From NCBI GenBank assembly GCA_964557455.1, contig CAZLAL010000090.1:1-47604 (forward strand): a stretch of 47,604 nt of DNA. The letters run 5' to 3'. This DNA comes from an uncultured Dehalococcoidales bacterium. GTDB lineage: Bacteria; Chloroflexota; Dehalococcoidia; GIF9; AB-539-J10. Positions within the stretch are counted from its first letter, which is position 1. Every line of letters starts with the position of its first letter. Below are positions 4,469 through 45,071 of this stretch, in pieces. The notes beneath the pieces were generated by a model. The model had not been told where the DNA came from. It searched no databases and saw only the letters and a program-made list of their open reading frames with translations. Made by a program: the position numbers and the translations under genes.

Positions 4469-6185
4469 AGCTTTCGCTCAGTATAGCAGCGTTCTCAAGC
4501 AGGAGCAAGGAGTCGCTGACTTGACCCACGCTCGGGGCATTGCTAGAATTCAATTCGGGGATATAGCTCAGCTGGGAGAGCACTGCGTTCGCATCGCAGG
4601 GGTCGGGGGTTCGAATCCCCCTATCTCCACCAAGGGTGACCATAGGCAGAACTTCCAGTGACTCCTTCATTCTCCCATCCGGTGGCATGGGTAGAGTGTA
4701 GTCTATCTTGGCGCTTCCTCCATCTATTTCAATTCTCTTGATGAATGAGCGAAGGAAAGCCTTGCTCTCAAGAATGTCAGCATCTCCGAGCAGGCATTCC
4801 AGGTCCCGAGCATAAGCCTTCACGATTCTGGCATCCACGTGTTTGACTACGCGAGTAATTTTCTCGGCTTCCATGAGAAGCCTAGCCTTGCTTAACTCAT
4901 CCTGCCGGACTCTTAGGCCTTTGATCCGGGGTGCCAAGTCATCGAGGCTGAGTTTTTCTGTTTCAAGGGCATCATACAGTTTCGACAACCTAGCTTCAAC
5001 ATCGTTGAGCTCAGCATCAATGGCATCCAGCTTCTCTTTCAAGATACCCTGGGTGGAATCAAGTTCCATATTGACTAGGCTGACCAACTCCTCCAGCGAC
5101 TTCTGGTTAAGTACCCTCTGCTTGACTTGCTTGAGGACCAATTGTTCGAGCTTATCTTTCGGCAACGCTCTGGCATTACAGGCATTCTTGCCTTTTTTAA
5201 ATCCCCCATTGCAGGTATAGTAGAAATACTGATGCGACTTGGCACTTCGACCTATCATAGCGTGTCCACAGGAACAGAAGAGGAAGCCAGTGAGGAGGTA
5301 AGGGCTCGGTATGGTGCGGGGATGAATTGTCTGTGGCCTTTTGGATCTCATTCTCTCCTGTACCAGCGCAAAGGTAGCCGGGTCGATAATTGCTGGCCAA
5401 GCATTCTCCACTCTCACGGGAGGATCGGAGCTGTGAATTGCCGGATGTCCCGGCCTACCACCCCAGACGAGGGTACCGCAATATGCTTCATTCGTCAAAA
5501 CCTTATGAACCGTGGTCCTCCCCCATAGTTGTCCCCCTCGAGTATGAAAGCCTTCTTTGTTCATTACTTTGGCGATTTCCTTGGAGCCGATGTCCTGCAG
5601 TGCCATACCAAACATCCTCTGAACAACCCTTACAGCCGCAGAGTCGTCAGGATCAGGCCCAAGCTTGTATCTGGTCTTAGTACCGTCCTGTACAGGAACC
5701 CTGCGTAAGCCGTAGGGAGGTCGGCTGCCATTGAAGAAACCACGTTGAGCGTTCTCTCTCATACCGCGCTTAATGTCCTGCCCGAGACTGGCGCTATAGA
5801 ATTCGTCGATAGATTCGATGACCCCTTCGAGCAGTTGACCGGAGGGGCTATCGTCCAGTTGTTCGCTGATGGAGATGACTTTGATACCCTTGCTCTTCAG
5901 CAGCGTTTTGTACGTAATGGAGTCCAGTCGATTTCTTGCAAACCGATTCAGCTTCCAGACCAGAATGCCTTCAAACGGCACGGGCTCGGTCTTGGCGAGG
6001 GCAGTCATCTCGCGAAAAGCAGGTCTGGAGGCGGTGCGACCACTTTCCGCCTCATCAACAAATTCTCTGACAATCTCGTGCCCTTGCTTCGCCGCATAGT
6101 CTCTCAATGCCCTGAGTTGAGCCGATATTGATAGGTCGGTATCCTGACTGTCGGATGATACTCTCGCATAAACAACAACTCTCAT
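4458..6185 (-). CDS. large serine recombinase (resolvase catalytic domain + recombinase domain + zinc ribbon + coiled coil); the last ~58 codons are read-through into host tRNA/promoter DNA
   Basis: [14 protein letters not shown] catalytic Ser motif, a recombinase domain, Cys-rich CSCGH...YYTCNGG...C, then a coiled coil. ATG 6185 is preceded by GGGGGTG. Recognisable domains end near codon 518 (about 4645); the ORF then continues antisense through tRNA-Ala to a stop at 4458. Confidence 0.9.
4521..4549 (+). promoter_or_regulatory. tRNA-Ala promoter TTGACC-17-TAGAAT
   Basis: TTGACC at 4521-4526, a 17-nt spacer, and TAGAAT at 4544-4549. The mature tRNA 5' end lies 8 nt downstream of the -10 element. 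Confidence 0.5.
4557..4632 (+). tRNA. tRNA-Ala (anticodon CGC), CCA encoded
   Basis: GGGGATA/TATCTCC acceptor stem with the G3:U70 alanine identity pair. D-arm GCTC-AGCTGGGA-GAGC, anticodon arm CTGCG-TTCGCAT-CGCAG, T-arm GGGGG-TTCGAAT-CCCCC, then discriminator A and CCA. Confidence 0.9.
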
Positions 6186-6207
6186 ATTCACCCCCATGTG
6201 TTGACCA

Positions 6208-7041
6208 TTATAATGGGCAATAGTGACAACGGCCGGGAACTACTCTTCTGAGTGTAATCACTGCTATTTCATCGTTCAGGTTCTTCTCAACACGACCGAG
6301 GTCCAGAAGAGATTTTTTGAGCTTCTCCAATTCCTCTAGCTCCTTCACACGCGACTCCAAGTCTTGCACCACTTCGCGTATGACCTTTGAGACCGTTCGA
6401 AGATGACCCTGTCCCACTGTCCCTAATCCGAATGCACCGTAGCGGAAATTCACGAAGCCTTCTCCTGCGGGTTCTGTACGGAGATTCTCCTCAATGTCTA
6501 GCCCACGGTACCCCTTGGCCCATTGCGCAGCCTGAAATCTGAGAGCTTCGATAAAACCATCAATAAGCCCAGAAGAACCCTCAGTCAAGCCGCTGCTCAA
6601 CCTGGCGTCTGATGTTACCAACTCTTCAATTTTGTTCTCAGTTTCCTCTGTAAGTTCGGCTATCCTTTGCCTTAGGCTGTCCCTTTGGTTCAGATAGCCC
6701 CAGATTCGCGATCTTGGGATATGCTGGCGTAAGGCATTTCTCATGTGTTCGGAATACAGACCATGGGCCCCAGTTGCTTCTCCTAAGGGGTACGTGCCAA
6801 GCGTTCTAGCATAATCACACAGGTCTTGATAATGACGCTCTAGGGCATTGCGCAATACCATTGACCTGGCTTCTTTGACTTCTCTCTCTTGTTTGGCTAA
6901 TTCGATATGTTTTCGCACTGTGCGAACATCCACTTGATCCTTGTTAGCTATACTGGGTGGTGAATCTCCGTCCTCATAGCGCCTCAGCCAATCAAGCCTC
7001 TGCTCAGGTGTGATTCTGGATTTTTTTATTTCTTCTGCCAT
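6208..7041 (-). CDS. hypothetical protein, N-terminal HTH-like segment plus coiled-coil C-terminus (possible recombinase accessory or regulatory factor)
   Basis: 277 aa from ATG 7041, with GGAGGA (complement of 7044-7049) upstream. The ORF-track start at 7083 falls inside the -10 box of the promoter. Its stop is 22 nt upstream of the recombinase ATG, so the two are probably one operon. Confidence 0.6.
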   Translation of the reverse strand: MAEEIKKSRITPEQRLDWLRRYEDGDSPPSIANKDQVDVRTVRKHIELAKQEREVKEARSMVLRNALERHYQDLCDYARTLGTYPLGEATGAHGLYSEHMRNALRQHIPRSRIWGYLNQRDSLRQRIAELTEETENKIEELVTSDARLSSGLTEGSSGLIDGFIEALRFQAAQWAKGYRGLDIEENLRTEPAGEGFVNFRYGAFGLGTVGQGHLRTVSKVIREVVQDLESRVKELEELEKLKKSLLDLGRVEKNLNDEIAVITLRRVVPGRCHYCPL

Positions 7042-7081
7042 ATGTCCTCCTGCTGCAACCTGGTCATGTATTGTGCAGTAC

Positions 7082-7110
7082 ATTATATACTATTTAACTA
7101 ATGTTGTCAA
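7082..7110 (-). promoter_or_regulatory. perfect consensus sigma70 promoter TTGACA-17-TATAAT driving the HTH gene and the serine recombinase
   Basis: On the minus strand, TTGACA is the complement of 7105-7110, followed by a 17-nt spacer and TATAAT (complement of 7082-7087). A divergent + strand candidate, TTGACT (7126-7131)-17-CATATT (7149-7154), faces the tyrosine recombinase module. Confidence 0.6.
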
Positions 7111-7363: not shown

Positions 7364-8119
7364 GTGAGAATAATGCGGACACAAACGATGAAGATTGCCA
7401 CAAATGACGCCAAGAAAGTTTATCTGGAACCCGAAGACGCAGCGCTGCTCGAGGGTGCCACCACGAATCTGCGGGATAGGTTACTGGTCCGCCTTCTATT
7501 TCGGTTGGGTTGCCGCATCAGCGAGGCTCTAGCTTTGGAGGTCGAAGATATAGACTTCGCCCAGGGTACGGTCAAAATTCAGCACCTCAAAGCACGGATC
7601 AATTTGGGATGCCCCAAATGCGGCGCTAGATTGGGAAGGACCCATAGTTTTTGTCCCAAATGTGGCGCAAAGGTAACAGCGACAATAATCAAAGAACAGC
7701 AGCATCGCAGGATGAGGGTACTCCCTCTGGACAGGGACACTTCGGCAATGTTGGATGATTTTATCAAGCGCGGCGGCCCGGTAAATAAGAATGGTAGGAG
7801 ACTCGTTTTCGGTATAAATCGTCACAGGGCGTGGCAGATCGTTAGAGATTGCGCTGAGAAAGCAGGATTCCCCAAGTTAATCAATCCTGAAACCGGGAAG
7901 ATGCATAATGTGAGTCCACATCGGCTCCGCGACGCTTTCGCTGTCCACGCTGTGAAGCTGGATGACTCTGGTGACGGACTCAGACTCCTGCAGGAGCACC
8001 TCGGCCACACCAGCTTTGACACCACTGCGAAATACAGGAAGGTTGCGGGCGAGGAACTGAGGGGCTGGTACGACCGGCTGTGGAAAGAAGAGGTGAATCG
8101 AAATGAACCTCAGACCTAG
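7364..8119 (+). CDS. tyrosine recombinase, catalytic domain only, with an inserted double-CPKCG zinc ribbon
   Basis: Catalytic residues in order: GCRISEAL (Arg I), HRLRDAF (HxxR), LGHTSF (His) and TTAKY (Tyr). CPKCGARLGRTHSFCPKCGAKV is inserted between the beta-hairpin strands. Only about 30 aa precede box I, so there is no core-binding domain. The start may be ATG 7388 (MKIATND). Confidence 0.8.
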   Translation: MRIMRTQTMKIATNDAKKVYLEPEDAALLEGATTNLRDRLLVRLLFRLGCRISEALALEVEDIDFAQGTVKIQHLKARINLGCPKCGARLGRTHSFCPKCGAKVTATIIKEQQHRRMRVLPLDRDTSAMLDDFIKRGGPVNKNGRRLVFGINRHRAWQIVRDCAEKAGFPKLINPETGKMHNVSPHRLRDAFAVHAVKLDDSGDGLRLLQEHLGHTSFDTTAKYRKVAGEELRGWYDRLWKEEVNRNEPQT

Positions 8120-8836: not shown

Positions 8837-9550
8837 ATGAGAAAACTAGGGGAAAGGCAAGGCATTTGCCACTGGGACCCAGATAACGCAAATTGCGTTA
8901 CCGCAGCGACAAAACCTTGCCAGCTACAGTCTATCGGAAGTGCAGATGGAGAGCAAGGGTACAATGGCAACAATGGCTATGACCAGCTACCAGAGCCGTA
9001 TTTAACCTACTACAAAATAGCTTTGCGGTTCGCTCACAAGTCTTTTCTAGACGACAGACAAGACCTTCTGCACGACATCATCGAAGGGCTTGCTAGAGTA
9101 GCGGAACATAAGACGATTGGCGAAGCTGCGATGTATCGGCTTGCCGAGCATGTCAAAGACCATTACTGGTATAAGCACTACGCCTATCATAATGGGTTAG
9201 ATTGCCAGCACTGTAGCAAAGAGCAGAGGGCCAAATGCCGATACCGGTGGGGGCATAGCGAGTGGGGCTTTGCTGATTGTGAGAAGGCAATCCGCCTTGA
9301 AAGCCTAAACCAGCCTGTCACAGATAGCGAGGGCAATATGACCGAGCTTGGGGAACTAATAGCCGATGACAACGCTCTGGACTTGGACGAATGGCTAGAC
9401 GCTAAGAGTTTCCTAATCGGAGCACCAATACGACTAAAGGCAATCGCTATCAAGAAGCACAAAGGTCAGACGCTAACAGAGGCGGAGCTAATGTATCTCT
9501 CAAGGCTACGGAAAAAACAACAGAAAACGCTCGCAAGCGTTAGGTTTTAG
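8837..9550 (+). CDS. hypothetical protein, sigma-70 region 2/4-like or HTH regulator with a Cys-rich insert
   Basis: 237 aa, with GGGGGG 4 nt upstream of the ATG. The C-terminal LTEAELMYLSRLRKKQQKTL resembles a region-4 HTH. Cys cluster CQHCSKEQRAKC. The family assignment is tentative. Confidence 0.5.
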   Translation: MRKLGERQGICHWDPDNANCVTAATKPCQLQSIGSADGEQGYNGNNGYDQLPEPYLTYYKIALRFAHKSFLDDRQDLLHDIIEGLARVAEHKTIGEAAMYRLAEHVKDHYWYKHYAYHNGLDCQHCSKEQRAKCRYRWGHSEWGFADCEKAIRLESLNQPVTDSEGNMTELGELIADDNALDLDEWLDAKSFLIGAPIRLKAIAIKKHKGQTLTEAELMYLSRLRKKQQKTLASVRF

Positions 9551-9786
9551 GCAATTCCGGACATTATTATAGTAGAAGCAACCGCATAGGCTAGCGAGTT
9601 GCAGCTATGCGAGGGCTTACTACTGGCTACCAGTGGACTTGCCCGCCATTGGAGAATAGCCGAAAGGGGGTGTTCTAAATAGAACAACTAAATATCGTGG
9701 GCAAACGCTCAGGCGAAGGCTTTGTGGCTCACAAGGCGAAACTGGTGAACGCCCTGTCCAGAACATTAGCCGAAAGGGTGATGCTG

Positions 9787-10917
9787 ATGGACTTTACAAT
9801 CGGGCGGAAAGGCTTGCTCGGCTACATTAAGGCTCTTAGCGGAAGCAATATCGTTAAGATAGTCCCTGCTTCCTCTAACGGCAGTGCTAGCGAGGCGCAG
9901 ACTGCTGCTAAAAAGCTGAAAGTAGCGTGTGGGGCTTGCACCAGCTACCTTGACGACACGGCTTGGATTGGCGATAAGACGGCCATGACCTTTGCTGAAA
10001 TCAGAGTGTGTCCAGCTAACAGCGTCAAACCCAATCTTGGAAGCCTGGAGCTATCGGAGGCAATCAGCAGAGTGCTTCCCTTCACCGCTAAGGATGAAGT
10101 CAGACCAGTTCTCCAATGCGTTCTCTTTAGGGCGAAGGAAGGCAAGCTGTCTATGGTTGCTAGCGATGGTTTTAGACTGGCGACTGTGGCACTGGACTAC
10201 GACGACAGCGAGGGCGACGTGCTAGTCCACAAAGACGAGCTAAGAGGCATCGCCAATGCCTTACGCAAGGCAAAGAGGGTTAGACTGGGCTTTGAGAAAG
10301 GCGGTGATACTCTTGACGGCATGAGCTTGATAATTGATACCGAAGCGATACGCTATCAATGGCGTGGCGCTGAAGGCCAATTCCCCGACTATGAGAAGCT
10401 CATACCGACGGAGTTCAACACCGTAGCGCACCTTGACACCGTTGAGGCTGTCAAGGCCGTGTATTCCTTCAGAGCTTTGTCGGATAATCCCAAAGACTAT
10501 CCCATAGACCTTACCATTGGCGAAGGCAAGATTGTCATGGCTAATCCCGATGAAAAGGGAGAGGCCACAATCCCCGCCGACACCGATGGACAGGGTTCTG
10601 TGAGAGTGGATGGGAGATACTTAGCCGAAGCTCTCAAGGCTTGCGGTGGCATGGTGGACTTCAAGCTCGTCAATGCCTACTCTCCAATGCTCTTTGCCAA
10701 TGACGGCTATCAAGTGGTAGTAATGCCCTTGATGACCCCACAGGCAAACGCAGCGATGGAGCAAGATAGGCAAGCGAAAGCACCAATCGAAGCGGAAGCA
10801 CCAGTAGAAGGGGAAGCCGAAGCGCAAGCGGAAGCGGAAACTGGGGAAGAGTCCGAGCAAGAGCCGAGAAAGAGGAAGAAGAGCCGAAAGGCTAAGGTAC
10901 TCGCAGCAGTAGCCTAG
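9787..10917 (+). CDS. DNA polymerase III beta sliding-clamp (DnaN) paralog, divergent, with a charged C-terminal tail
   Basis: From ATG 9787 the protein starts MDFTIGRKGLLGYIKAL, like DnaN (MKFTI..). It also has PVLQCVLFRAKEGKLSMVASDGFRLATV (domain II ATDGxRLA block), GQFPDYEKLIP (FPDY..IP motif) and YQVVVMPLM (the canonical C-terminal VVMPMR-like block). A 60-aa EA-rich then KRKK tail follows. The ORF-track GTG start at 9697 is less likely: AAAGGGTG lies 7 nt before 9787. Confidence 0.65.
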   Translation: MDFTIGRKGLLGYIKALSGSNIVKIVPASSNGSASEAQTAAKKLKVACGACTSYLDDTAWIGDKTAMTFAEIRVCPANSVKPNLGSLELSEAISRVLPFTAKDEVRPVLQCVLFRAKEGKLSMVASDGFRLATVALDYDDSEGDVLVHKDELRGIANALRKAKRVRLGFEKGGDTLDGMSLIIDTEAIRYQWRGAEGQFPDYEKLIPTEFNTVAHLDTVEAVKAVYSFRALSDNPKDYPIDLTIGEGKIVMANPDEKGEATIPADTDGQGSVRVDGRYLAEALKACGGMVDFKLVNAYSPMLFANDGYQVVVMPLMTPQANAAMEQDRQAKAPIEAEAPVEGEAEAQAEAETGEESEQEPRKRKKSRKAKVLAAVA

Positions 10918-28432: not shown

Positions 28433-28518
28433 ATGCATAGTCAGTATGCCTCTTCAACTCCAGAACCTTATTATATGCTGTCTCCGTCGGAATCAACCTT
28501 GTGTCATTCTTACCCGAT

Positions 28519-32059: not shown

Positions 32060-32157
32060 GTTATTCCTCCTGGTCGCGGTTAGATTTCTGAAGACCAACA
32101 GATGTTGCCATAGCGGCACAAGAATTCAATACCGATTCTCCTTATAAAGGTAATAGG

Positions 32158-35500: not shown

Positions 35501-35800
35501 GCCGGTTACTGGTTTATCTCTGCCCGGGCTGGTTTTGATACCAAGGGGATGGTCTTTTCCGAAGAACTGGAGCGTGATTTCGTGAACATGGTGCGTCTGA
35601 TTGTGTCCGGCATAGAGGGTGGCCTTTTCCCTGCCAATCCCGGAAGCGGCGGCGCAGGATTCAATAATTGCGCCTACTGTGAGTACGCACGTATCTGCCC
35701 GGCTGATATAGATATGGTGTGGGAGAGGAAATCTCAGAACCCCGAACTTGCTTCGTACTTAAGTATGATTACGGGAACAAGAACAGAGGAGATCGAATGA
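32576..35800 (+). CDS. AddB/RexB-like helicase-nuclease subunit: degenerate helicase fold without Walker A, C-terminal PD-(D/E)xK nuclease with an Fe-S cysteine cluster
   Basis: 1074 aa. The N-terminus VTVVVPSMYTG has no GxGKT. GMEFDIVHILGMVGGAFP and RRLFRAALASGQKRILSYP are AddB-type motifs. Nuclease blocks LFIVDYKTGS and HLQLPVYALA. Cysteines: CPFRYY...CAYCEYARIC. Confidence 0.85.
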   Translation: MTYNRLILDGYGSEVQEQLASLIAEAKNDNLLAPVTVVVPSMYTGLSVRRSLGKQRGLVNVRFMVLPRLTEYLGAPALTRQGKSPLTPTMKLVAVRHFASEMANREPLGAISKHPPLHGYLVNNFNELAMLSEKQLSWLQAKTPVLNQVVEWYHMYRELTQPYYDREELAHSAAISVDNGDAESVLKDLGFIIFYLVTGFSRGELAFVSSLGVRKCCAVILGLTGEEEVDAESHRLVSRLEPVQGKAASTIPAPKSYAADHITIASDSNEEVRWAVRHIAQCAENGVRFHRMALLYRNASPYAELIKSYLYLAQIPVAGPDPVPLRDSAAGKIALYLIDVFVSDFARESVMRWISEAPVYTGENTESPSREAALWEEVSGRAGIIRGAGQWSNRLERFCTGIEQKLRSEEPREEDEETVTTSPDEDCAKAGMRLKSFVERLSENPPPTDESSWKDYSQWASRMMKQYSHLDTWPEAQILSYERVTAVLQELGTLDSIEPGGTNLGGFRQMLDDCLKMSSGRLGTVGEGVFVGPLASAQGMEFDIVHILGMVGGAFPPKLHDDAIIPDQLREELGDNSPLALRDQRRIDERRLFRAALASGQKRILSYPHSDGDGKRQCYPSPWLMSEAEILHSKYKQIEASESEAYTPIRCVELEGMAAEEWISVIHSIHGSVLSLGGLVAADIHDYDIHSLAKWHDSGYRVDRHFLMRERSIAHRALMTERASRSTAFTAWDGNVTSLAGRSRRLGMPGKTAHSPTRLELWAKCPFRYYLKHVLEVPVLERPEEILTISPLDRGSLVHGILERFVKTLKESGQMPGYGEPWDSNHQALLMQIAEEEFAKTESLGLTGRPLLWNVVMSEIRDDLSLCLKKDSELRAQTMTRPVEVEWRFGFGEAGQCPPVTLEIGRGQQIMFRGIIDRLDSDESGTRLFIVDYKTGSSYAYRDMRDDPLGAGTHLQLPVYALAARSAFGQESKVQAGYWFISARAGFDTKGMVFSEELERDFVNMVRLIVSGIEGGLFPANPGSGGAGFNNCAYCEYARICPADIDMVWERKSQNPELASYLSMITGTRTEEIE

Positions 35801-38800
35801 GCCAGGAATTTGTTCCCTCCGACCAGAAACACAGGATACGCGTAGAGAACGAGCTGGACACTACCTTCTTCGTGGAGGCAGGTGCCGGCACCGGGAAAAC
35901 ACGGGAACTTGTGCAGCGCATTACCAACCTGATAGTCTGCGGAGTAACACAAATAGACCATATCGCGGCCATCACCTTTACAGAGGCAGCTGCTGCTGAA
36001 CTGAAAGACAGAGTTCGTACGGACCTTGAAAGGTGTGCTACCGACCGGACGCTGGATGGTGAAAAGATAGCAAGGTGTCGTGCTGCTCTAACCCGTTTTG
36101 ATGATGCCAGCATTCAGACACTGCACAGTTTTGCAGCATCTCTTCTGCGGGAGAGACCGTTTGAGGCAGGGCTGCCGCCCAACTTCGAGGTTGTTGCACA
36201 AATGGAGGCTGGTATCGACTTCGAGCGAAACTGGCAGGAATGGGGGGACGGGGCAATGGAGAGAAAGGAAACGGCCTCCCATTTGCTCACTGCCATGACC
36301 TTGGGCCTCAGGATGAATGACCTCAAGACAGCCGCAAGGCTGCTTCATGAGAACTACGATATGATGCCTGATCGGTTTGAACCCGTTCCTCCACCATCGC
36401 CCAGGATAGCACAGGCTGTCGTATCAGAAGCCAAACATATCGAGCTGTTAATGGAGCTGGCCAATGAAGGCTTTAATGATACTCTTGCTGCCCATGCACA
36501 AAGGGTGGTCGACCTGGCACGCACTCTGAGTTCCATGAATTATAGTGGTAACGCCGCGCTTTCGCTCCTCGCGGGCTTTGGTAAGCTGTCCTGCAAGGCT
36601 GGTCGCAAACAAGACTGGGCGGATGTAAAAGCCGGTGTGAATGGATGCACCGTGCTCAAACAGCTGCTGGAGAAACTCGAGGCAATGAAATGCGAGGAGC
36701 TTGAAGCTGTTCGCCGTGCTGCCCTGATGCCGCTCCTTGAGGACCTGAGGAGCTCTCTGCTGAACTGGGTTGAACAACGTCGCAGCGACAGCAAGGTTGA
36801 TTTCCACGACCTGCTGGTGCGAACCAGGGATATGCTGCGTGATGTGCCGGACGTAAGGGAGCACTTCCAGAAACACTTCACCCACATATTGATTGACGAG
36901 TTCCAGGACACTGATCCCATCCAGGCGGAGATTGCCTTCTTTCTGGCTGCAGACCAGAAAGCGATGGGCCGTAGCGCTCTTACTGAGAAAGATTGGAGGA
37001 AGCTTGTAACCACCCCTGGCAAGCTGTTTATGGTGGGAGACCCCAAACAATCTATTTACCGTTTCCGGAGAGCAGATATCGCCACAGTGCAGGACGTAGG
37101 TGAGATTCCTGGAACGGACAACGTACCATTGGAACAGAATTTCCGCTCTCAGGAGCCGGTGATTGCCTGGGTTAATGCGGTATTTGGCAGGTGGATGGGC
37201 GACGGCAAGCCTCACGTTCAGGCAACTTATGCCAAACTGTCGGCGCGATGGAACGACAAAGGTGCTGTACCTCCGATGGGAGTGCACCGCTTTGGAGAGG
37301 CTGTGGATGAGGCGGCAGCGCAGCTCAGGAAATACGAGGCATCTTCCATTGCCAATGTTCTCTACGTTATCAAGAAGAGGCAGTGGCAGGTTAGAAATGC
37401 CGTCACAAATACTCTGCATCCGGCACGCTACTGTGACATCTGTGTACTCATGCCTACACGCACCGTATTACCCTACATAGAACGTGCTCTTGACGAAGCT
37501 AATATCCCCTATCGCATTGAAAGCGAGTCCCTTATTTTTGGGACACAGGATGTCCGTGAGCTTCTCAGCTGCCTGCGCGCCATTGATTCTCCTGCCGACA
37601 GGGTGGCACTGGTAGCCGCCCTTCGTTCAACCGCCTTTGGATGCAACGATGTCGAGTTAGTGGAATATCTGGATTCTGGAGGCCTTCTTGACTACACGAG
37701 CCCTGGCAAGGCTGATGGACCGGTGAGCGAGGCTATGCAGGTACTGGCACGATACAACGAGATGCGCACTTGGGTACCCATCGACCAGTTAATCGAGATG
37801 TTCATCCGAGAGAGGCGCCTCGCCGAGATAGCTTTCGGCAGGGCCAGGCCAAGAGAACGACTTCGCCGCCTTAAGATGGTGGCACAGCAAGCACGAGCGT
37901 TCTCCGAGATAGGAGAAAGATCGCTCCGAATCTTTGCCGACTGGATGGAGCAACAGATGGCCGAGGGCAGCCGCATGGTGGAAATCCCGGTACCGGAAGC
38001 TGATGAAGATGCAGTTCGTATTATGACAATTCATGCTGCCAAGGGATTGGAGTTCCCTATCGTTATACTGGCGGGAATTGGAGGCACTGGTGCAAGCCGC
38101 GGTAATCCCGTCATATTCGAACGAGATGGGGGTAGTGTTGAGGTAAGCTTGGGCATAGAGGGAAGGAAGTTTGTGACTTCAGGCTACGAAAGAGCACGTG
38201 AGCAGGAGAAGGAGATGGATGAGGCGGAGGCAGTCCGCCTGATGTATGTAGCTACCACCAGAGCCAGAGACCACCTGATGGTAAGTCTTTATCGAAAAGC
38301 CACTAAGTCGATGAGTAATGCTCTTGCGGCAGTCATCGAAAGGTTCGCCGGCGAAACTGGCTGTAAATGGGATGAAATTGACTGCTCACAGGTGGATACA
38401 GAGGAAATACGAGAGCGTGATACTGATGTTCCGAATGTGTTAGGTACTGAGGCTGATAGAGAGAAGTGGATAACTGACCGTGAGACGGTCTTAGAACAGG
38501 CCTCTAGGAAGCCAGCCATAGCGGTGACCGCGCTGGCTCACTTGGACAAGGAAGAACCTGAGCGGGGAGAAATTTACTATCGAAAGGGGCGAGGAGGTAC
38601 CAGTCTGGGTCGTGCTGTGCACAGTGTTCTGCAAAGTATTGACTTGGCTACTGGGAAAGATCTGGAAGAAATAGCCAGAGCCCAGGCTGCCGCCGAAGGA
38701 ATACATGACAAATGGAAGGAGGTGGCGGGATTGGTACGCCGCGGCTTGAATGCACAAGCAGTGAAGCGTGCAGTTGTTTCGAATAAGTATCATCGTGAAG

Positions 38801-39129
38801 TGTTTGTGAGCGTGCCATATGAAAACGTATTGGTCGAAGGCTTTATTGACCTCCTCTTTGAAGAAGACGGAGGCCTTGTAGTAGTGGATTACAAGACAGA
38901 CGTACTGGACAATGAAGAAGAGGAGATGAAAAGGCAAGATCGATACCAGCTGCAGGCTGGAACATATGCACTTACTATTGAAAAGGCTACTTCAAAGCCA
39001 GTGAAAGAGGTAGTGCTGCTGTTTCTTCGTTGTGGCAAGGAAATGATTGTTACGAATATTAAGTCTTTAACAGCCCAATCGCATCAACATATAGTGTCGA
39101 TTCTTAATGCTAAGGGAGGTAAATTATGA
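35797..39129 (+). CDS. AddA/RecB-like UvrD-family helicase with a C-terminal RecB nuclease domain
   Basis: 1110 aa from the ATG in an ATGA overlap with the upstream stop. Motifs: EAGAGTGKT, ILIDEFQDTDP, VGDPKQSIYRFRRA, NFRS, TIHAAKGLEFP and YVATTRARD. Nuclease: GFIDLLFEEDGGLVVVDYKTD and RYQLQAGTYAL. Confidence 0.9.
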   Translation: MSQEFVPSDQKHRIRVENELDTTFFVEAGAGTGKTRELVQRITNLIVCGVTQIDHIAAITFTEAAAAELKDRVRTDLERCATDRTLDGEKIARCRAALTRFDDASIQTLHSFAASLLRERPFEAGLPPNFEVVAQMEAGIDFERNWQEWGDGAMERKETASHLLTAMTLGLRMNDLKTAARLLHENYDMMPDRFEPVPPPSPRIAQAVVSEAKHIELLMELANEGFNDTLAAHAQRVVDLARTLSSMNYSGNAALSLLAGFGKLSCKAGRKQDWADVKAGVNGCTVLKQLLEKLEAMKCEELEAVRRAALMPLLEDLRSSLLNWVEQRRSDSKVDFHDLLVRTRDMLRDVPDVREHFQKHFTHILIDEFQDTDPIQAEIAFFLAADQKAMGRSALTEKDWRKLVTTPGKLFMVGDPKQSIYRFRRADIATVQDVGEIPGTDNVPLEQNFRSQEPVIAWVNAVFGRWMGDGKPHVQATYAKLSARWNDKGAVPPMGVHRFGEAVDEAAAQLRKYEASSIANVLYVIKKRQWQVRNAVTNTLHPARYCDICVLMPTRTVLPYIERALDEANIPYRIESESLIFGTQDVRELLSCLRAIDSPADRVALVAALRSTAFGCNDVELVEYLDSGGLLDYTSPGKADGPVSEAMQVLARYNEMRTWVPIDQLIEMFIRERRLAEIAFGRARPRERLRRLKMVAQQARAFSEIGERSLRIFADWMEQQMAEGSRMVEIPVPEADEDAVRIMTIHAAKGLEFPIVILAGIGGTGASRGNPVIFERDGGSVEVSLGIEGRKFVTSGYERAREQEKEMDEAEAVRLMYVATTRARDHLMVSLYRKATKSMSNALAAVIERFAGETGCKWDEIDCSQVDTEEIRERDTDVPNVLGTEADREKWITDRETVLEQASRKPAIAVTALAHLDKEEPERGEIYYRKGRGGTSLGRAVHSVLQSIDLATGKDLEEIARAQAAAEGIHDKWKEVAGLVRRGLNAQAVKRAVVSNKYHREVFVSVPYENVLVEGFIDLLFEEDGGLVVVDYKTDVLDNEEEEMKRQDRYQLQAGTYALTIEKATSKPVKEVVLLFLRCGKEMIVTNIKSLTAQSHQHIVSILNAKGGKL

Positions 39130-40256
39130 CAATCAAGATCCTGCATACAGCAGACTTACATTTGGGCATGAGATTTGCCAGTCGTGGCTATACTCCACAA
39201 CTACAGGAGAGCCTATCAAAGGCGCGTTTCGAAACACTTGATACGTTGATTAAGGTTGCCAACAAAGAGCAAAGCGACCTATTGGTCATTGCTGGTGATC
39301 TGTTTGACTCGCCCAGGGTGTCACGGGGAGATATTCTTAGAGCTGCTACCCTTCTGAAAGACTTTGAGGGTCGACTTATTCTGATCCTTCCAGGCAACCA
39401 CGACTATATTCAAAAAAGTGATGACCCGCTCTGGCCTAATTTCCTCAACAACACTAGCCAAAATACAATACTCCTCGGTGAACCCAAACCTTACGATCTT
39501 GGGCTGCATGGTCTTGACCTAGCCATTTACCCCGCACCATGCACGTCCAAGCACTCGAAGGCCAATGTAATAGGTTGGGTGCCCGAATACACGAAAGACA
39601 AAGAGACGAGCTTGACTGTGGGCATCGCACACGGCAGCCTGGAGGGGCTGTCGCCTGATTTCAAGCAGGATTACTATCCAATGTCGAAAAGGGAATTGCA
39701 GACAGCGGGCGTAGACCTCTGGCTCATGGGGCATACTCATACCCGCTACCCAAATGAAGACAAGGGAACACAAGCACGGATCTTTTTCCCTTCGACTCCT
39801 GAGCCGGACGGATTCGATTGCAGGCATCCCGGCTACGTGTGGTCTATAGAAATTGCTGAGAACAAATCCATACACTATCACTCGATTCAAACCGGGACCT
39901 ACCGGTTTTCTGATTTGGAGAGACAATTAGAGAATGAAGCTGACATAGAGAACATCAGAATCGAATTTCGTGGAATGAATGCTGAGAAAGACCTGGTGAG
40001 ACTAAGACTGAGAGGGAGAATTCAGAATGAGCTTTACGATGAACGAGAATCTTTGCTAGGCGAACTGGAGAAATCAGTTCTATATCTAGAGCCAGATACT
40101 TCCGAGCTATTCCGGCAAATCACATTGAAGGATATCGACCAGGAATTCACTTCCGGGTCGTTTCCACACAGGTTACTCACTACATTGGCCAAGAAGCATC
40201 CAGATCCGCTGCTGCTTCAAACCGCCTATGATCTGATACAGGAGGCTAGAAAATGA
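39126..40256 (+). CDS. SbcD/Mre11/YhaO-like metallophosphoesterase nuclease subunit
   Basis: 376 aa. Calcineurin-like motifs in order: ILHTADLHLG, VIAGDLFD, LPGNHD and LMGHTH. ATGA overlap with the upstream stop. Confidence 0.85.
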   Translation: MTIKILHTADLHLGMRFASRGYTPQLQESLSKARFETLDTLIKVANKEQSDLLVIAGDLFDSPRVSRGDILRAATLLKDFEGRLILILPGNHDYIQKSDDPLWPNFLNNTSQNTILLGEPKPYDLGLHGLDLAIYPAPCTSKHSKANVIGWVPEYTKDKETSLTVGIAHGSLEGLSPDFKQDYYPMSKRELQTAGVDLWLMGHTHTRYPNEDKGTQARIFFPSTPEPDGFDCRHPGYVWSIEIAENKSIHYHSIQTGTYRFSDLERQLENEADIENIRIEFRGMNAEKDLVRLRLRGRIQNELYDERESLLGELEKSVLYLEPDTSELFRQITLKDIDQEFTSGSFPHRLLTTLAKKHPDPLLLQTAYDLIQEARK

Positions 40257-42685
40257 TAATTAACAGCTTGAAACTCGATCCCTTTGCAGGCATTTCAAAG
40301 AAGCAGATAGATCTCGAGAAAGGTCTGAATGTTATTGTGGGTCCCAACGAGGCAGGCAAGAGCACCCTGCTGAATGCACTCAGGTTGGTTCTGTTTGTGC
40401 CGACAGACTGCGGCAAACGCATATTCAAGGAGGAGATTGCCGACTTCATGCCTCTGGCTGGAGGAGACACTATCAGGGTTGGTCTGGATTTCAGGATCGG
40501 AAAACACGACTATTCTGTGACGAAATCTTGGGGATATTCAAAGCAAGATTCTGAACTGAAATTACCGGGAGGAGGTCTGAAAACGAATGCCCAAGACGTT
40601 CAAGAGGAGCTGCAGAATCTACTGGTTCTCAGCAGGGGTACCTCCGATTCAGTGCTATTTGGCGCACAATCTAGACTTGGGCACACCTATGATTCTCTTG
40701 AGGAGGGTTCTTCGGCTATGCAAGACCTAGCCTCGATTATGAGAAAAACAATCTTCGAAACGGAAGGTGTGTCCATCGGGCAACTAGGTGATGCAATTGA
40801 CGATTCATTCTATGACTATTTCAGCCACTGGGATACAGAGCTTAAACGTCCAGAAGGTAATAGGCAAATTGATAATCCCTGGAAGAAAGAGGTGAGGAAA
40901 ATACTAACTGCATACTACAAGCTGGAAAGGCTGAAACAACAAATGCTGGATGTCCAAGAGCATGAAGACAAAATTGGTGAGCTGGTCCAGCTTGTGCAAG
41001 AACGCTCTACAGAGTTGCAGGAATTGCAGGCTTACCTTAAAGAGAACCAGAAAGCAGTTACTGATGCTAAACAGCGACAAATACTTGTCGCACAGCATGA
41101 TGCTCTAAGGATCAAGGAAAAGACACTGCTTGATGCATCTAAGCTTTGGCCAACGATTGTCGGTGAAAGAAACCGTATGCAAAACGATCTTAGAAAATTC
41201 AAGACGAAGCATAGGAACCTGGAGAAAGAAATGGACAAGGCGCAGGCCTACGAGGACAACAAGGCAAGGCTCGAAAAATATAAGCGGGCATCAAGGAAGA
41301 AAAACGAATTGGAGAGAAAGCAAAATGCCTTACTGAAAATGAAGGTAATCGAGGAAAAAGACTATAAAAAACTGGAGAAATTAAATGCTGAGTTGATGAA
41401 GCTAGAAACCAGTTTGCAGGCCGGTCAGCTTGCTCTCACTATGACCGCAAAGAAGGCGCTGAGTTTGAGGGTGTCAAAGGATTTTGAAAAAGAGACACAG
41501 CACAGGCTTGGGGCAAGGAGATCCCTTAAGCTATCTGCAGGAGGGCAAGTACAAATTGATCATGACGACTGGGCATTAAAGGTCAAATCCGGAGATATCG
41601 ATTTTGATGACCTGAAGAAATCCGTCGAGGATGTTTCCAGCAGGTATGAGGCATTACTAAGGCGCTTATGTGTTAGTGATTTTGATAGCGCTGGTAAGGC
41701 CTATGACTCATATCAAATTCAGCGCAATTTGGTTACCGGTTTGCAGGAGCGATTGGAGGAAATCCTCGATGGAGAAACATATGAAGAACTGGATAAATTA
41801 GCCAGAAAGGCTTCTCGCACAAAAGCCCCTTCTCGGACCTCTGGATCCATTGGTAAGGAACTAGGAGCCATAGTGAATGAAATATCTAATACTGAAAATG
41901 AGATAAAATCGCGCACACAAACATTATCTGGATTGGAGAGGAAATATGGTTCTCAGGATGAACTCCTAGAGTTGCTGGTCAACGAGCGAGCTGAACTGAA
42001 GCGGACCGAAATGGAGCTAAAGAAACTCAAACCGTTGCCGAAGTCAGTAGAGGGTCCTGATCAGTTCATTCTAGAATACGAAAAGAAACAGATCGCCGCA
42101 CAGAAAGAAGAGAGAGAAATAAATGGACTGCGAATAGAGAAAGCTCATAAGGAAGCACAGGCACCTACAGAAACTAGGGAGGAACTTCAGTCACAACTAA
42201 TACAAGCTGAGCTTGATTTCGCGAAGAGAGAAAGAGAGGGAGAAGCCATCTCGGAGATACGCGATACCTTTCGGAAGATTGAGGCGGAGATGGATTCACA
42301 AACTCTCGATCCATGGTTAGATGAGCTAGGGACAGTACTGGAGCCATTAACAGCAAATCGCTATAAGCAAATCGATCTGGGTGAAGGCGATTCGGGCAAG
42401 GCATTACGTGCAGATGGATTGGCTATCCCCTTCGTGCTACTTTCTATCGGCACCAAAGTAGGATTGGGATTAGCCCTGCGCCTTTCTATGGCCCGGTACT
42501 TCTTGAAGGACTCGGAAGGATTCTTGGTTCTGGATGATCCGCTTGTTGACATGGACCCAGACCGGCAAGGTGCTGCAGCTAAGATCATACAGAATTTCGC
42601 TGCGGAGAAACAGGTAATTGTTATGACATGTCACCCAAGTCACGCAGATTTGCTGGCAGGAAACACTATCAGGTTATTATTGTGA
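40253..42685 (+). CDS. SbcC/Rad50/YhaN-like ABC-type ATPase with a long coiled coil and no zinc hook
   Basis: 810 aa. Walker A GPNEAGKSTLLNAL, a ~500-aa heptad-rich K/E/L middle, signature-like LSIGTKVGLGLALRLS, Walker B GFLVLDDPLVDMD and H-loop MTCHPSH. The only cysteines are isolated (no CxxC). ATGA overlap with the upstream stop. Confidence 0.85.
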   Translation: MIINSLKLDPFAGISKKQIDLEKGLNVIVGPNEAGKSTLLNALRLVLFVPTDCGKRIFKEEIADFMPLAGGDTIRVGLDFRIGKHDYSVTKSWGYSKQDSELKLPGGGLKTNAQDVQEELQNLLVLSRGTSDSVLFGAQSRLGHTYDSLEEGSSAMQDLASIMRKTIFETEGVSIGQLGDAIDDSFYDYFSHWDTELKRPEGNRQIDNPWKKEVRKILTAYYKLERLKQQMLDVQEHEDKIGELVQLVQERSTELQELQAYLKENQKAVTDAKQRQILVAQHDALRIKEKTLLDASKLWPTIVGERNRMQNDLRKFKTKHRNLEKEMDKAQAYEDNKARLEKYKRASRKKNELERKQNALLKMKVIEEKDYKKLEKLNAELMKLETSLQAGQLALTMTAKKALSLRVSKDFEKETQHRLGARRSLKLSAGGQVQIDHDDWALKVKSGDIDFDDLKKSVEDVSSRYEALLRRLCVSDFDSAGKAYDSYQIQRNLVTGLQERLEEILDGETYEELDKLARKASRTKAPSRTSGSIGKELGAIVNEISNTENEIKSRTQTLSGLERKYGSQDELLELLVNERAELKRTEMELKKLKPLPKSVEGPDQFILEYEKKQIAAQKEEREINGLRIEKAHKEAQAPTETREELQSQLIQAELDFAKREREGEAISEIRDTFRKIEAEMDSQTLDPWLDELGTVLEPLTANRYKQIDLGEGDSGKALRADGLAIPFVLLSIGTKVGLGLALRLSMARYFLKDSEGFLVLDDPLVDMDPDRQGAAAKIIQNFAAEKQVIVMTCHPSHADLLAGNTIRLLL

Positions 42686-43046: not shown

Positions 43047-43637
43047 CTAAGCACGCGAGCCACCATTCGGTTGAATTCGAATTAGCCGAGCGATATAGAT
43101 TAACTTTCCTTTCGACTGCTGAAGTCTCTGAATGATGTTATCGAGAGTTCCAACTCGTTTTCCCTGTAAAGCTTCCATTTTCAACTCATCGATCGCAGCG
43201 ATTAGGCTCTCCAATGTAACCCATGTTCCTTCCGCCGGAATAGCGTTGTAGGGTGCCATCATTAATCTCTTGTCCAATGACACTGCCCATCTTGTTTCTC
43301 CGAATACTTGCGTCATACCATTGAAACCTGACAGCCCTGCACCCAAAGCAGCATACTTGTCCCTAGTTATCACCCCCGCAAGAATTGAATTCGCCGCAGT
43401 CACTGCCAGGCTGGCTCCTATGTTCTTCTTATCTCTCGTAAGCAGGGTGAATCCTCTTTGACGTGCTAAAGCCTCCCTTCGTTTTTTCAGAGAATGTTTC
43501 AGAAACTCCATCTTCAAGGACTCGGCTTCAAGGCGTAGGATTTCAATGCCTCTGCCGACACTCTGGCACGCGCTTTCAATATAGGCCAACTCATTTCTCA
43601 GGTCTGCAACAGCCTTTGCCCACCTATTATTTGACAT
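43047..43637 (-). CDS. hypothetical protein with a central Gly/Ala-rich hydrophobic segment
   Basis: 196 aa. Its ATG overlaps the upstream stop (TGATG), which suggests translational coupling. N-terminal coiled-coil-like helix, then IGASLAVTAANSILAGVI...AALGAGLSGFNG. No family recognised. Confidence 0.55.
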   Translation of the reverse strand: MSNNRWAKAVADLRNELAYIESACQSVGRGIEILRLEAESLKMEFLKHSLKKRREALARQRGFTLLTRDKKNIGASLAVTAANSILAGVITRDKYAALGAGLSGFNGMTQVFGETRWAVSLDKRLMMAPYNAIPAEGTWVTLESLIAAIDELKMEALQGKRVGTLDNIIQRLQQSKGKLIYIARLIRIQPNGGSRA

Positions 43638-44866
43638 CAATTTCTCCCAAGACTGTGTTGCACTTCCTCGATGAAGTTGCCCAAAGTCTTTCCAGATTCC
43701 TCACCTTTTTTTACTACTTGCCTCATCTCACCTATGGCCTCACCTGCCCTTAGAGCATCGGCCAACAAAGCACTGAGTTGGTCCTTAATATCGGCCACCT
43801 GTTGCTGTATCTGTGAAGCACCATCTTCTCCTGCGGCTCTTACTTTTTCCGATGTGTAGGAAATAATGCCGAGGATTTCACCTTCCAGAAGCCCCTTCTT
43901 CTTATCCAACTCAGCAATTTCGCCTGCCAAGACAGATTCCTTTTTGACCAGCCGGTTTACTTGTTCTACTTCCACCTTTCGCTGATTTTCAAGGCCGCAT
44001 ACCTCTTGAAAGAGGCCCAAGGCAGAAACGAACCTCTTCTTGAGCTCTTTACCGCTAATCCCTTCGTTCTTACTGGTTCTTTCGACGAAGTCTGTGATAC
44101 GGAGAAGGTCTTCATCGGACAAGCCAATGTCGTTGACCCGTTTTAGCGACTCTTCTCGACCACCGATCTCCGACGAGAGTTTGGTCCTTCTGCCCTGGAG
44201 CCCCTTTATTTCCCTGTTCAATCGCGATCCTTCCTCCTCCCTTTCCTTGATCCTTGACTTGAGTTCCGTTAGCTTTGCGGTCTGTATCTCAACAGTGTTC
44301 TCGAGCTTGTCCTTGGCTCTCTCCAGCGATTCAAGTTCTGAACGCAGTGACCCCACCGTTTCAATGAGCTCATTCTTATTATTGATGAGAGAGTCCACAT
44401 CCGCCTTAAGCTCATCCACTCCCTCTTTCAGCCTCACGTACTCCGCGGCCAGCGCGGCAAAAGGTTTCCCCTCACTTTTTTCTAGCTCATCAAATCTTAA
44501 TGCCGCTTCAATGAAATCTTTGGCTGGGAAGTCGACGGGAAGGAGTCTCTTGGTCAGTTCCGCCCACTTGTTCATTAATTCCGGTGTTACTTCCAGGGCC
44601 TGGAGCCTGTCAAATGATAAGATTCCCAGCAGCGCCTGAGATGGTTCCAAGCCTTTCTTTTTGAGCTCAAGGGAGAGGCGACGAAGGTCGTTCACCTGGT
44701 CAAATGAGCTACCGGGGATGGTAAGTTTACCGCATTCCAGTTCCTTCACGATGTTCACGACGCTGCCGTGCGACACCCCCGACCGATTCTCTATATCACT
44801 ATATAGATGACCTAAAATATAGTACTGCGCGACTTCTAGCTTCTTTGCTCTTGTTATTTCCTTCAT
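43637..44866 (-). CDS. hypothetical HTH protein with a long coiled coil
   Basis: 409 aa, with AGAGGT 5 nt upstream of the ATG. N-terminal HTH-like KKLEVAQYYILGHLYSDIENRSGVSHGSVVNIVKEL, then ~250 aa of heptad-rich sequence. Confidence 0.6.
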   Translation of the reverse strand: MKEITRAKKLEVAQYYILGHLYSDIENRSGVSHGSVVNIVKELECGKLTIPGSSFDQVNDLRRLSLELKKKGLEPSQALLGILSFDRLQALEVTPELMNKWAELTKRLLPVDFPAKDFIEAALRFDELEKSEGKPFAALAAEYVRLKEGVDELKADVDSLINNKNELIETVGSLRSELESLERAKDKLENTVEIQTAKLTELKSRIKEREEEGSRLNREIKGLQGRRTKLSSEIGGREESLKRVNDIGLSDEDLLRITDFVERTSKNEGISGKELKKRFVSALGLFQEVCGLENQRKVEVEQVNRLVKKESVLAGEIAELDKKKGLLEGEILGIISYTSEKVRAAGEDGASQIQQQVADIKDQLSALLADALRAGEAIGEMRQVVKKGEESGKTLGNFIEEVQHSLGRN

Positions 44867-44908
44867 TTTTTACCTCTTTTTTGCTGAAAATTTCCATCAT
44901 CTGACTAT

Positions 44909-44978
44909 TTGACGGACTAATTGACCGACCACTTGACCGTGCTTTTGACTTTTTGACCTGAATCGTGATAATTTGACC
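44909..44978 (+). repeat. array of six TTGAC(C) motifs upstream of the HTH-coiled-coil gene
   Basis: TTGAC at 44909, 44921, 44933, 44945, 44953 and 44973. The first four are exactly 12 bp apart, and four of the six read TTGACC. Confidence 0.7.
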
Positions 44979-45056
44979 TCCAAGCGACTATTAGCTGTGA
45001 CTGTTAAATAGTAAGGGGGAAGGTAAAGCTAAAAGTTCTGTCTATTGCTACCCCGG

Positions 45057-45071
45057 CTCCACCATAGGGTC
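45057..45071. other. candidate right-end attachment repeat (copy of the tRNA-Ala 3' end/trailer)
   Basis: CTCCACCATAGGGTC against 4625-4646 CTCCACCAAGGGTGACCATAGG. Two alignments are possible: CTCCACCA[T]AGGGT (13 matches, 1-nt indel), or ACCATAGG 8/8 (45061-45068 = 4639-4646). The match is short, so this is only suggestive. Confidence 0.35.

Follow-up and report, generated by a model that had tools for sequence, protein, structure and literature searches.

The closest described counterparts of the element analysed here are genomic islands of Dehalococcoides. In Dehalococcoides mccartyi, islands have been reported at the transfer RNA (tRNA) genes tRNA-Ala, tRNA-Val and tRNA-Lys, with a site-specific recombinase beside tRNA-Ala and a 25-bp repeat (McMurdie 2009, PMC2764846). 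Other islands, inserted at ssrA, measure 10–60 kb, lack transfer genes and carry a large serine recombinase, DsiB, on the reverse strand at their left edge (McMurdie 2011, PMC3146451); the 3' end of the DsiB gene always overlaps attL, its stop codon lies only outside the island, and full function only on the circular form has been proposed as a possibility (PMC3146451). The window studied in this work, by which we mean the whole analysed stretch of 47,604 nucleotides (nt), is one entire contig (C90) and the longest in the assembly of an uncultured Dehalococcoidales bacterium (1.27 Mb, 226 contigs, 51% G+C). Positions 4633–45056 of this window very probably form one integrative island, inserted into the 3'-terminal 8 bp of a tRNA-Ala(CGC) gene by a large serine recombinase that the island itself encodes. 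The island is a complete new member of a type already reported in Dehalococcoidia.

The islands of McMurdie 2009 and the present island occur in the same bacterial class and at the same type of target gene, start directly after tRNA-Ala, have an adjacent recombinase and repeat the tRNA 3' end in direct orientation; islands of both kinds can also be arranged in tandem. The present island differs in its repeat (8 bp as against 25 bp), in its cargo, which comprises defence, repair and surface functions where the published islands carry reductive dehalogenases, and in its host, which belongs to an uncultured genus. The inverted arms and the split-gene tail that we describe below do not figure in the passages of that report consulted here (PMC2764846). 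With the DsiB islands it shares a recombinase gene whose 3' end overlaps attL and whose stop codon lies outside the island. In contrast to those islands, its target is tRNA-Ala(CGC) with an 8-bp repeat, not the gene for transfer-messenger RNA (tmRNA) with a 20-bp repeat, and in place of the DsiB module (DsiB, DsiA, a RecF-like protein, ParB, Mom and a large protein) it has a 291-amino-acid (aa) protein resembling helix-turn-helix (HTH) proteins, a tyrosine recombinase, orphan genes and a sliding-clamp paralogue.

The insertion and its borders

Seven tRNA genes, all on the + strand and at the positions given in the preliminary description of this DNA, flank the insert.

4557–4632, + strand: tRNA-Ala(CGC), the integration target (ARAGORN and Rfam)
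4625–4632, + strand: attL core CTCCACCA, which makes up the 3'-terminal 8 nt of the tRNA, CCA among them
45057–45064, + strand: attR core CTCCACCA, a displaced copy of the tRNA-Ala 3' end (overlap of the alignments to G003:C182)
45065–45209, + strand: native tRNA-Ala trailer and Ala-Arg spacer (TAGGGTCTCG...), aligning with the 140-bp spacers of G003, G002 and G007
45210–45946, + strand: tRNA genes Arg(CCT)-Trp-Leu(GAG)-Gly-Cys-Leu(TAA), the rest of the ancestral array (ARAGORN and Rfam)

Both flanks were used as queries against 40 relatives, 24 of them from the same genus (genomes, contigs and loci are designated by G, C and L numbers). In relatives from this genus and from three other families, the genes for tRNA Arg-Trp-Leu-Gly-Cys-Leu follow gatB-tRNA-Ala after 0–300 bp. 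A single contig carries gatB-tRNA-Ala together with the six-tRNA array in four genomes (G007:C190, G002:C234, G003:C182 and G018:C30), the Ala and Arg genes are adjacent at distances of 0–33 bp in four others (G010, G022, G020 and G004) and adjacent in G011 as well, and the contiguous layout extends to the three other families (G028, G026 and G030). Homology to the left flank ends exactly at position 4632 in every relative, and homology to the empty site of G003:C182 picks up again at 45057; the two alignments to this contig share exactly 8 nt of the subject, namely CTCCACCA. These two limits place the insert at positions 4633–45056 (40,424 bp), with an 8-bp direct repeat at its edges. The trailer after attR reads TAGGGT, as compared with TAGGAT and TAGAGT in relatives, where the fuller sequence is CTCCACCATAGGAT or CTCCACCATAGAGT. 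The earlier proposal that an Ala-Arg-Trp-Leu-Gly-Cys-Leu array, contiguous in the ancestor, is interrupted by some 40 kb of accessory DNA is thus borne out by the empty sites of relatives.

DNA searches with the whole insert found insert DNA between tRNA-Ala and tRNA-Arg in none of the 40 relatives, many of which have the empty site; the case that had been named as refuting the proposal, relatives that carry the same 40 kb but lack the recombinase, was therefore not encountered among them. Apart from one block of glycoside hydrolase and glycosyltransferase genes (see below), no part of the island sits in a core context in relatives, and no further copy of island DNA or of its recombinases was found elsewhere in the same genome. 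Integration would have regenerated tRNA-Ala, which stays intact with an identical 3' end supplied by the element, and would have displaced the remaining six members of the array by 40 kb.

It could be argued that the region has always lain between these tRNA genes, was lost in relatives and has its repeat by chance; an 8-mer is not significant by itself, and parts of the region are typical of the genome in composition. This would require many independent, base-precise deletions, given the contiguous array in four families, is contradicted already by the empty sites, and would leave the arms, the recombinase and the family-wide architecture described below unexplained, so we consider it extremely improbable.

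The array has been entered by other DNA as well. In G020:C54 (L095/L096), about 30 kb lie between tRNA-Arg and tRNA-Trp and have no proteins in common with the present island, and in G022:C146 (L016), 2.5 kb follow tRNA-Arg and end with a partial Arg repeat. Repeats of the tRNA-Ala 3' half, 29–57 bp long, are found about 260–290 bp downstream of the tRNA in G017:C96 (L023), G013:C55 (L025) and G024:C65 (L029). The seven-tRNA array is a hotspot for several unrelated elements. Contigs of several relatives stop exactly at the 3' end of tRNA-Ala or tRNA-Arg (G003:C160, G008:C48 and G004:C2), a pattern to be anticipated where the sampled populations contain filled and empty alleles side by side. 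Just beyond the island, positions 46256–47602 encode a protein with a TackOD1 domain followed by two Mrr-type restriction-endonuclease domains; it is chromosomal, judging from the homologous region that follows the array in G020.

Attachment sites

The repeat of the tRNA-Ala 3' end reported earlier is present, with the attL/attR pair where it had been placed: positions 4625–4646 read CTCCACCAAGGGTGACCATAGG and positions 45057–45071 read CTCCACCATAGGGTC. The caution attached to it was also justified, as CTCCACCA occurs four times in the window against 1.5 copies expected. We take the repeat to be real because of its position relative to the empty sites of relatives and because it is flanked by inverted arms.

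4635–4653, – strand: P' arm AGTTCTGCCTATGGTCACC (minus-strand reading), which doubles as the recombinase codons ..VLPMVT
45034–45052, + strand: P arm AGTTCTGTCTATTGCTACC, matching the inverted P' arm at 15 of 19 positions

The two arms are 19 bp long and inverted, are identical at 15 of the 19 positions and lie at equal distance from the core. The P arm with its core occurs once in the whole genome, and a search of the window at up to 3 mismatches revealed neither a third arm copy nor an internal inverted attP. At the register of the P' arm, the DNA motif GTTCTnnCTAnnG is kept in 27 related loci.

When the ends are joined, attP consists of the P arm (45034–52), CCGG, CTCCACCA, AG and the P' arm (4635–53), so that an imperfect inverted repeat of 19 bp encloses a spacer of 14 bp centred inside the core, with the junction ...GCTACCCCGGCTCCACCA joined to AGGGTGACCATAGG. 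The corresponding attB is the tRNA 3' end with the native trailer TAGGG (...CCCTATCTCCACCATAGGG...); it contains a small dyad, CCCTAT/ATAGGG, and its junction is ...TATCTCCACCA joined to TAGGGTCTCGCAG. From the centre of the spacer, the crossover dinucleotide is predicted to be CC at 4627–4628. These sites fit the design known for serine integrases, with short imperfect inverted arms and a core common to attP and attB.

Two alignments of the repeat had been offered in the preliminary description. The one reading CTCCACCA[T]AGGGT fits the junction, and the exact match ACCATAGG does not mark it. We rejected a joint at ACCATAGG because its copy at 4639–4646 is part of the P' arm, while its copy at 45061–45068 consists of ACCA from the core plus the native trailer TAGG, as in relatives; this match is a coincidence between P'-arm sequence and the sequence of core plus trailer.

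A recombinase gene probably divided by integration

4458–6197, – strand: large serine recombinase, adjoining attL; the open reading frame (ORF) of the integrated form has 579 aa
45004–45056, – strand: displaced recombinase 3' end, the last 17 codons (AGVAIDRTFSFTFPLTI) with the TAA stop at 45004–45006, joined to the gene only across attP

The recombinase matches, in this order, the Pfam families Resolvase (PF00239, 3.3e-32), Recombinase (PF07508, 4.9e-20) and Zn_ribbon_recom (PF13408, 1.4e-14); its PHROG match is integrase (3.5e-113), and the N-terminal motif YARVSSDSQ is present. On these matches it has all three domains of a large serine recombinase, and it is predicted to catalyze attP x attB recombination.

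As had been noted before, the 579-aa ORF runs antisense through the whole tRNA gene and ends at 4458, 58 codons past the junction. The part borne by the element covers 4633–6197, and the final 58 codons are antisense tRNA-Ala and its upstream region. The earlier expectation that the ORF closes differently in a circular form also stands; the ending proposed for it, ...LEVLPMVEPG followed by a stop at 45048–45050, stems from the wrong joint. We rejected the ...PMVEPG stop because the empty sites of relatives place the joint at CTCCACCA and not at ACCATAGG. Joining at the true core yields an ORF of 541 aa that ends ...TLGGAGVAIDRTFSFTFPLTI / ...PMVTLGGAGVAIDRTFSFTFPLTI, its stop being the complement of 45004–45006.

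The displaced tail is conserved. In six related right ends, it conforms to GG[AP][GQ]x[AT]I[DHA]RTF[STG][FL][TSA]F[PAS]LT[IT] and stops at the same codon, which may be TAA, TGA or TAG, and several of the changes between tail codons are synonymous (TTT/TTC, CTT/CTC, ACT/ACC and AGC/AGT). Seven distant elements with unrelated DNA at this place have tails of 18–25 residues with an alternating hydrophobic pattern, for example ..EVSFGLNL, ..LELIFKLV and ..FQFIFLIS. In a hand count over the six close right ends and three of the seven distant ones, 4, 6 and 11 sites were variable at codon positions 1, 2 and 3, respectively, a distribution that is suggestive and falls short of proof. Taken at the sequence level, these patterns are evidence that the tail is translated, which would be possible only from attP, and suggest that the recombinase gene is complete only in the excised circle.

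According to this model, attP would lie within the last codons of the recombinase gene, and integration would split the gene. The chromosomal ORF would continue into the antisense tRNA (579 aa), and the excised circle would regain, from the far end of the island, the conserved hydrophobic tail of 17 codons and its stop (541 aa). In the circular form, the recombinase gene lies directly upstream of an array of TTGAC motifs and of genes for 409-aa and 197-aa proteins on the same strand. It is possible, though we regard it as doubtful, that the split is a built-in switch by which the far-end tail (hydrophobic and strand-like, 17–24 codons plus stop across the family) reports the integration state to the enzyme; combined with the use of the generic tRNA 3' end as target, this would make these recombinases a retargetable, self-sensing class of serine integrases. 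The full enzyme would then be made only from the circle, and the integrated copy would bear a tail encoded by the antisense tRNA; the direction of the reaction, the stability of the enzyme or its expression might be biased by this swap of tails, and in the circle the recombinase operon would in addition become continuous with the right-end genes. Any role of the swap, as we infer it, is tentative.

The recombinase family in Dehalococcoidia

The survey of the family returned 41 public loci, 35 of which were scanned for tRNA genes, and was extended by 24 further loci from the class. The public homologues are 38–77% identical to the recombinase and come almost entirely from metagenome-assembled Dehalococcoidia. 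At 27 of the 35 scanned loci, the gene ends within a few nt of the 3' end of a tRNA gene on the opposite strand; these tRNAs are Ala (all three anticodons), Leu(TAG), Asn, Glu, Ile, Asp and His. Most of the 24 further loci also abut tRNA genes, adding Val, Lys, Gln and Met to the targets. An even sample of the class has homologues in 31 of 121 genomes, one of which yields as many as 11 matches. Homologues of 48–57% identity are encoded by complete genomes of 1.4 Mb from the class, and those examined abut tRNA genes, not the tmRNA gene.

The end of the protein at the junction is ..VLP[IMLT]xT-GG in the closest homologues (at least 58% identity), whereas distant ones keep only VL; a GTTCT-type DNA motif at the junction is kept in all homologues. 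In 26 of the 27 junctions the integrated ORF continues into the antisense tRNA, for 7–89 codons. Two of the recombinase genes, in G003:C163 (L130) and G017:C3 (L131), are identical over at least the last ~68 nt, and they are found at tRNA-Ile(GAT) and tRNA-Leu(TAG), respectively, targets that share only CCCACCA. Target choice is loose, because near-identical recombinase 3' ends sit at these two different tRNA genes.

Sites resembling attR and built to the same design are found in two Dehalogenimonas genomes, at distances of 84 kb and 60 kb from the recombinase. The complete 1.4-Mb genome G122 (C1:58363–86274; L100, L147 and L149) has a recombinase at tRNA-Ala(GGC) and attR-like sites at +10 kb and +28 kb, i.e. 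intervals of 10 and 18 kb, and the first of these sites is directly followed by another recombinase, which is truncated; the arrangement indicates a tandem island pair. This 57% homologue, about 58 kb into the genome, agrees in position with the published tRNA-Ala-1/HPR1 (PMC2764846). Directly after tRNA-Leu(TAG) in G004:C3 (194025–194133; L036 8026–8168), a remnant of 109–143 bp is 79–80% identical to the recombinase 3' end and P' arm with no recombinase gene there, and it looks like the scar of a lost element.

Backbone of the island

6208–7083, – strand: 291-aa protein, upstream of and co-oriented with the recombinase; weak N-terminal Pfam HTH_29 match, below cut-off
7364–8119, + strand: short tyrosine recombinase of 251 aa with a zinc-ribbon insert (Pfam Phage_integrase, 2.7e-18, and Zn ribbons; PHROG integrase)
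8837–10917, + strand: 237-aa orphan and DnaN-like sliding-clamp paralogue of 406 aa (Pfam DNA_pol3_beta domains; PHROG processivity factor, 1.5e-34)
43047–44866, – strand: right-end backbone, encoding a protein of 409 aa with HTH and coiled-coil features and another of 197 aa (conservation in relatives)
44901–44979, + strand: phased TTGAC(C) array of six motifs, starting at 44909, 44921, 44933, 44945, 44953 and 44973, the first four 12 bp apart

The left backbone is made up of the recombinase, its 291-aa partner, the tyrosine recombinase and the clamp. The right backbone has, besides the TTGAC array and the P arm, the genes for the 197-aa and 409-aa proteins, and mosaic cargo lies between the two. 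Homologues of the 291-aa protein, 26–43% identical, lie beside the recombinase in more than 10 related loci; this protein, a conserved partner, is a candidate regulator or directionality factor. The clamp module recurs in G018, G004, G189 and others. The 409-aa and 197-aa proteins are 66–76% identical to proteins of G004, G003, G189 and G172, each next to a P arm; PHROGs offered nothing useful for these two or for the 291-aa protein. The TTGAC array, which lies between the displaced tail and the 409-aa gene, is nearly invariant in three elements (the window, L038 and L094) and is a candidate operator or iteron.

As a module, the right end (197-aa gene, 409-aa gene, TTGAC array and P arm) recurs at 75–85% DNA identity in G189, G004 (twice), G170, G003 and G172, and every copy terminates in a P arm followed by a tRNA-end core. 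The right end of G003, with the core TGGCCCAC, pairs with a recombinase at tRNA-Ile on another contig, where the P' arm mirrors the P arm and the tyrosine-recombinase module adjoins; in G189:C10, the clamp module and the right end lie 9 kb apart on one contig. Because the halves co-occur in G003 and G189, the left and right ends seen in the window represent a single type of backbone, whose intervening cargo varies.

G189 was rejected as a full-length relative: its left side differs, with a 569-aa orphan and ACTATGATT repeats. The run of ACTATGATT repeats (G189:C10, L143, 15960–16040) precedes the orphan gene in the usual place of the recombinases, and this region may be an alternative left-end module.

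The short tyrosine recombinase is internal and has the catalytic domain only. It might be the actual integrase, with the serine recombinase as cargo or passenger, as the enzymes that usually target tRNA genes are tyrosine integrases (PMC4383910) and a homologous module lies near tRNA-Ala(TGC) in G004:C7 without a serine recombinase. The gene, however, is set back 2.7 kb from the island edge, its product has neither an arm-binding nor a core-binding domain, the 8-bp direct repeat falls short of the tens of bp typical of tyrosine systems, and the arms of both ends belong to the serine recombinase gene or mirror it across dozens of relatives. That the tyrosine recombinase inserted the island is therefore very unlikely. 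At its place in G004:C7 (L037, 7900–8960), the homologue starts 84 bp after tRNA-Ala(TGC) and is followed by the clamp module, with neither a serine recombinase nor a P' arm, and the tyrosine-recombinase/clamp module may be an element in its own right.

Cargo and composition

11509–17775, – strand: surface/adhesin-like protein of 2088 aa (Pfam NosD/beta-helix and BNR/sortilin repeats; tetranucleotide 97th percentile)
20341–24396, + strand: type IIG restriction-modification enzyme, Eco57I/DrmMI-like, 1351 aa (Pfam; PADLOC REase_MTase_IIG, 3.5e-71, and DrmMI, 1.2e-97)
24431–28081, – strand: block of 3.65 kb encoding a family 15 glycoside hydrolase (GH15) and a family 4 glycosyltransferase (GT4) (Pfam; relatives)
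30182–32119, – strand: TIR-like/TPR protein, 645 aa (Pfam CAP12-PCTIR_TIR, below cut-off, and TPR)
32576–42685, + strand: four overlapping AddB-, AddA-, SbcD- and SbcC/LmuB-like genes (Pfam and PADLOC)

The cargo is a mosaic and largely of the defence type. PADLOC returned no match for the TIR-TPR protein or for proteins of 474 and 228 aa, and a DNA search of the 24 same-genus relatives found none of the AddB-, AddA-, SbcD- and SbcC/LmuB-like genes. The larger ORFs of the window were scanned against Pfam (19 ORFs) and PHROGs (10 ORFs). Neither set yielded capsid, portal, terminase or tail genes, and the 19 ORFs searched against Pfam had no relaxase, coupling protein or type IV secretion domains. 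The element is most aptly described as a genomic island that may be mobilisable, and not as a prophage or an integrative conjugative element (ICE). We infer that the island may still be mobile today.

Tetranucleotide distance from the rest of the genome was computed in 4-kb windows with a 2-kb step and judged against the 95th percentile. Six windows exceed this threshold, at 12–18, 20–24, 28–32 and 38–44 kb, while the recombinase module, the GH15/GT4 block and addAB are typical in composition. The visible patchiness mentioned in the preliminary description is therefore real. Composition was rejected as a decisive test: among the 4-kb windows, which overlap one another, just six surpass the 95th percentile, a result that supports a mosaic and leaves foreign origin unproven.

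The GH15-GT4 block is 95% identical to its counterparts in G001, G010, G015 and G007, whereas the neighbouring core DNA of those genomes is only ~85% identical. The block is located at G001:C59, G010:C91, G015:C159, G007:C385/C222 and G018:C15 in differing housekeeping contexts, with UbiE, enolase, peptidyl-tRNA hydrolase and RNase Y among its neighbours, and this distribution suggests a cassette that was recently exchanged within the genus. In the island, the block is either a host segment captured in a former host or the single place where an assembly chimera is possible. To its right, at 28405–28433, lies an intergenic, perfect (GCTA)n microsatellite, which is self-complementary.

A chimera would consist of two islands at this tRNA-Ala in co-existing strains, joined across the block; in that event the assembler would have produced the 40-kb size and the set of cargo genes artificially, and the insertion site and both att ends would stay real. 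The excess identity of the block over core DNA and its place among housekeeping genes in G001, G010, G015 and G007 speak for such a join, as does the genome's own copy of UbiE, the ancestral neighbour (C159), which lies at a contig end without the block beside it. Yet the block is single-copy in the assembly, a 95% match to genomes of other species is no proof of a second, near-identical copy in the sample, and the island ends are two halves of one backbone type that occur together also in G003 and G189. Capture of host genes by islands is common and offers an alternative account of the block. We consider a chimera unlikely.

Two or more islands might instead have accreted serially at tRNA-Ala, leaving a decayed inner seam, for example at 27832–27899, and only the outer sites usable. 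Such arrays are the rule at ssrA of Dehalococcoides (PMC3146451) and are found after tRNA-Ala in G122, the cargo is mosaic in composition, and a second recombinase is present. On the other hand, the island has a single serine recombinase and no third arm-like sequence at up to 3 mismatches, its two internal CTCCACCA copies (13134 and 36389) are within coding regions, and the stretch 27832–27899 belongs to a block that relatives carry outside islands. We therefore regard a tandem origin as quite unlikely. The tRNA-Ala-like stretch itself was rejected as a seam, since positions 27700–28100 gave no Rfam match at E<=1 and the alignment to tRNA-Ala consists only of a 10-mer and a 9-mer.

Several further points weigh against a single island inserted by its own serine recombinase. 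The assembly is metagenome-derived, 65% complete and divided into 226 contigs, and the 95%-identical GH15-GT4 block could in principle let an assembler join two islands. The core is only 8 bp long, and its four copies in the window are reached in 4 of 100 shuffles. Composition is atypical in patches only, and the analysis identified neither a directionality factor nor any gene for replication or transfer. Finally, there is the second, tyrosine recombinase, found elsewhere alone beside tRNA-Ala, and some of the backbone may formerly have existed as a separate element.

Comparison with other integrases

The integrases of phiC31, Bxb1, TP901-1 and A118 and SprA of SPbeta are three-domain enzymes acting on short imperfect inverted att repeats with a central crossover and little identity between attP and attB. 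The recombinase of the island resembles these large serine integrases of phages and ICEs in its three domains and in att-site design. To our knowledge, such integrases mostly target protein-coding or intergenic sites and have attP outside the integrase ORF. Unlike them, the present family targets tRNA 3' ends and has attP embedded in its own last codons. According to the paper on Islander, no serine integrases are known that target tRNA genes (PMC4383910). The classical island of a tyrosine integrase at a tRNA gene is also a poor description of the locus, as its tyrosine recombinase does not lie at the edge and its repeat measures 8 bp and not tens of bp.

In the "suicidal" archaeal tyrosine integrases of the SSV type, attP lies in the integrase ORF and the intact protein is made only from the excised form (PMC7253208). 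The present gene is likewise split by integration at an attP within the ORF. In contrast to SSV, whose gene is split in the middle and whose enzyme is destroyed, the enzyme is from an unrelated family and only its last 17 codons are displaced, with catalytic and DNA-binding domains intact.

Implications

What is new here is the full reconstruction of an attP/attB pair and the comparative support for a displaced gene tail. Because both ends, the empty site of relatives, attP and attB are known to the base, this serine-integrase island type, widespread among Dehalococcoidia, becomes directly testable. Since none is known according to PMC4383910, serine integrases at tRNA genes seem to be a family poorly known outside the Dehalococcoidia niche, and they run counter to the textbook rule that only tyrosine integrases use tRNA genes. 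The conserved tail backs the idea of McMurdie et al. 2011 that the gene is whole only in the circle, which was raised for DsiB without such evidence (PMC3146451). Integrases of this family have a short target found in every bacterium and may interest genome engineers. For its host, the island means that an uncultured lineage with a small genome gains genes for defence and DNA-end processing and a giant surface protein in one step.

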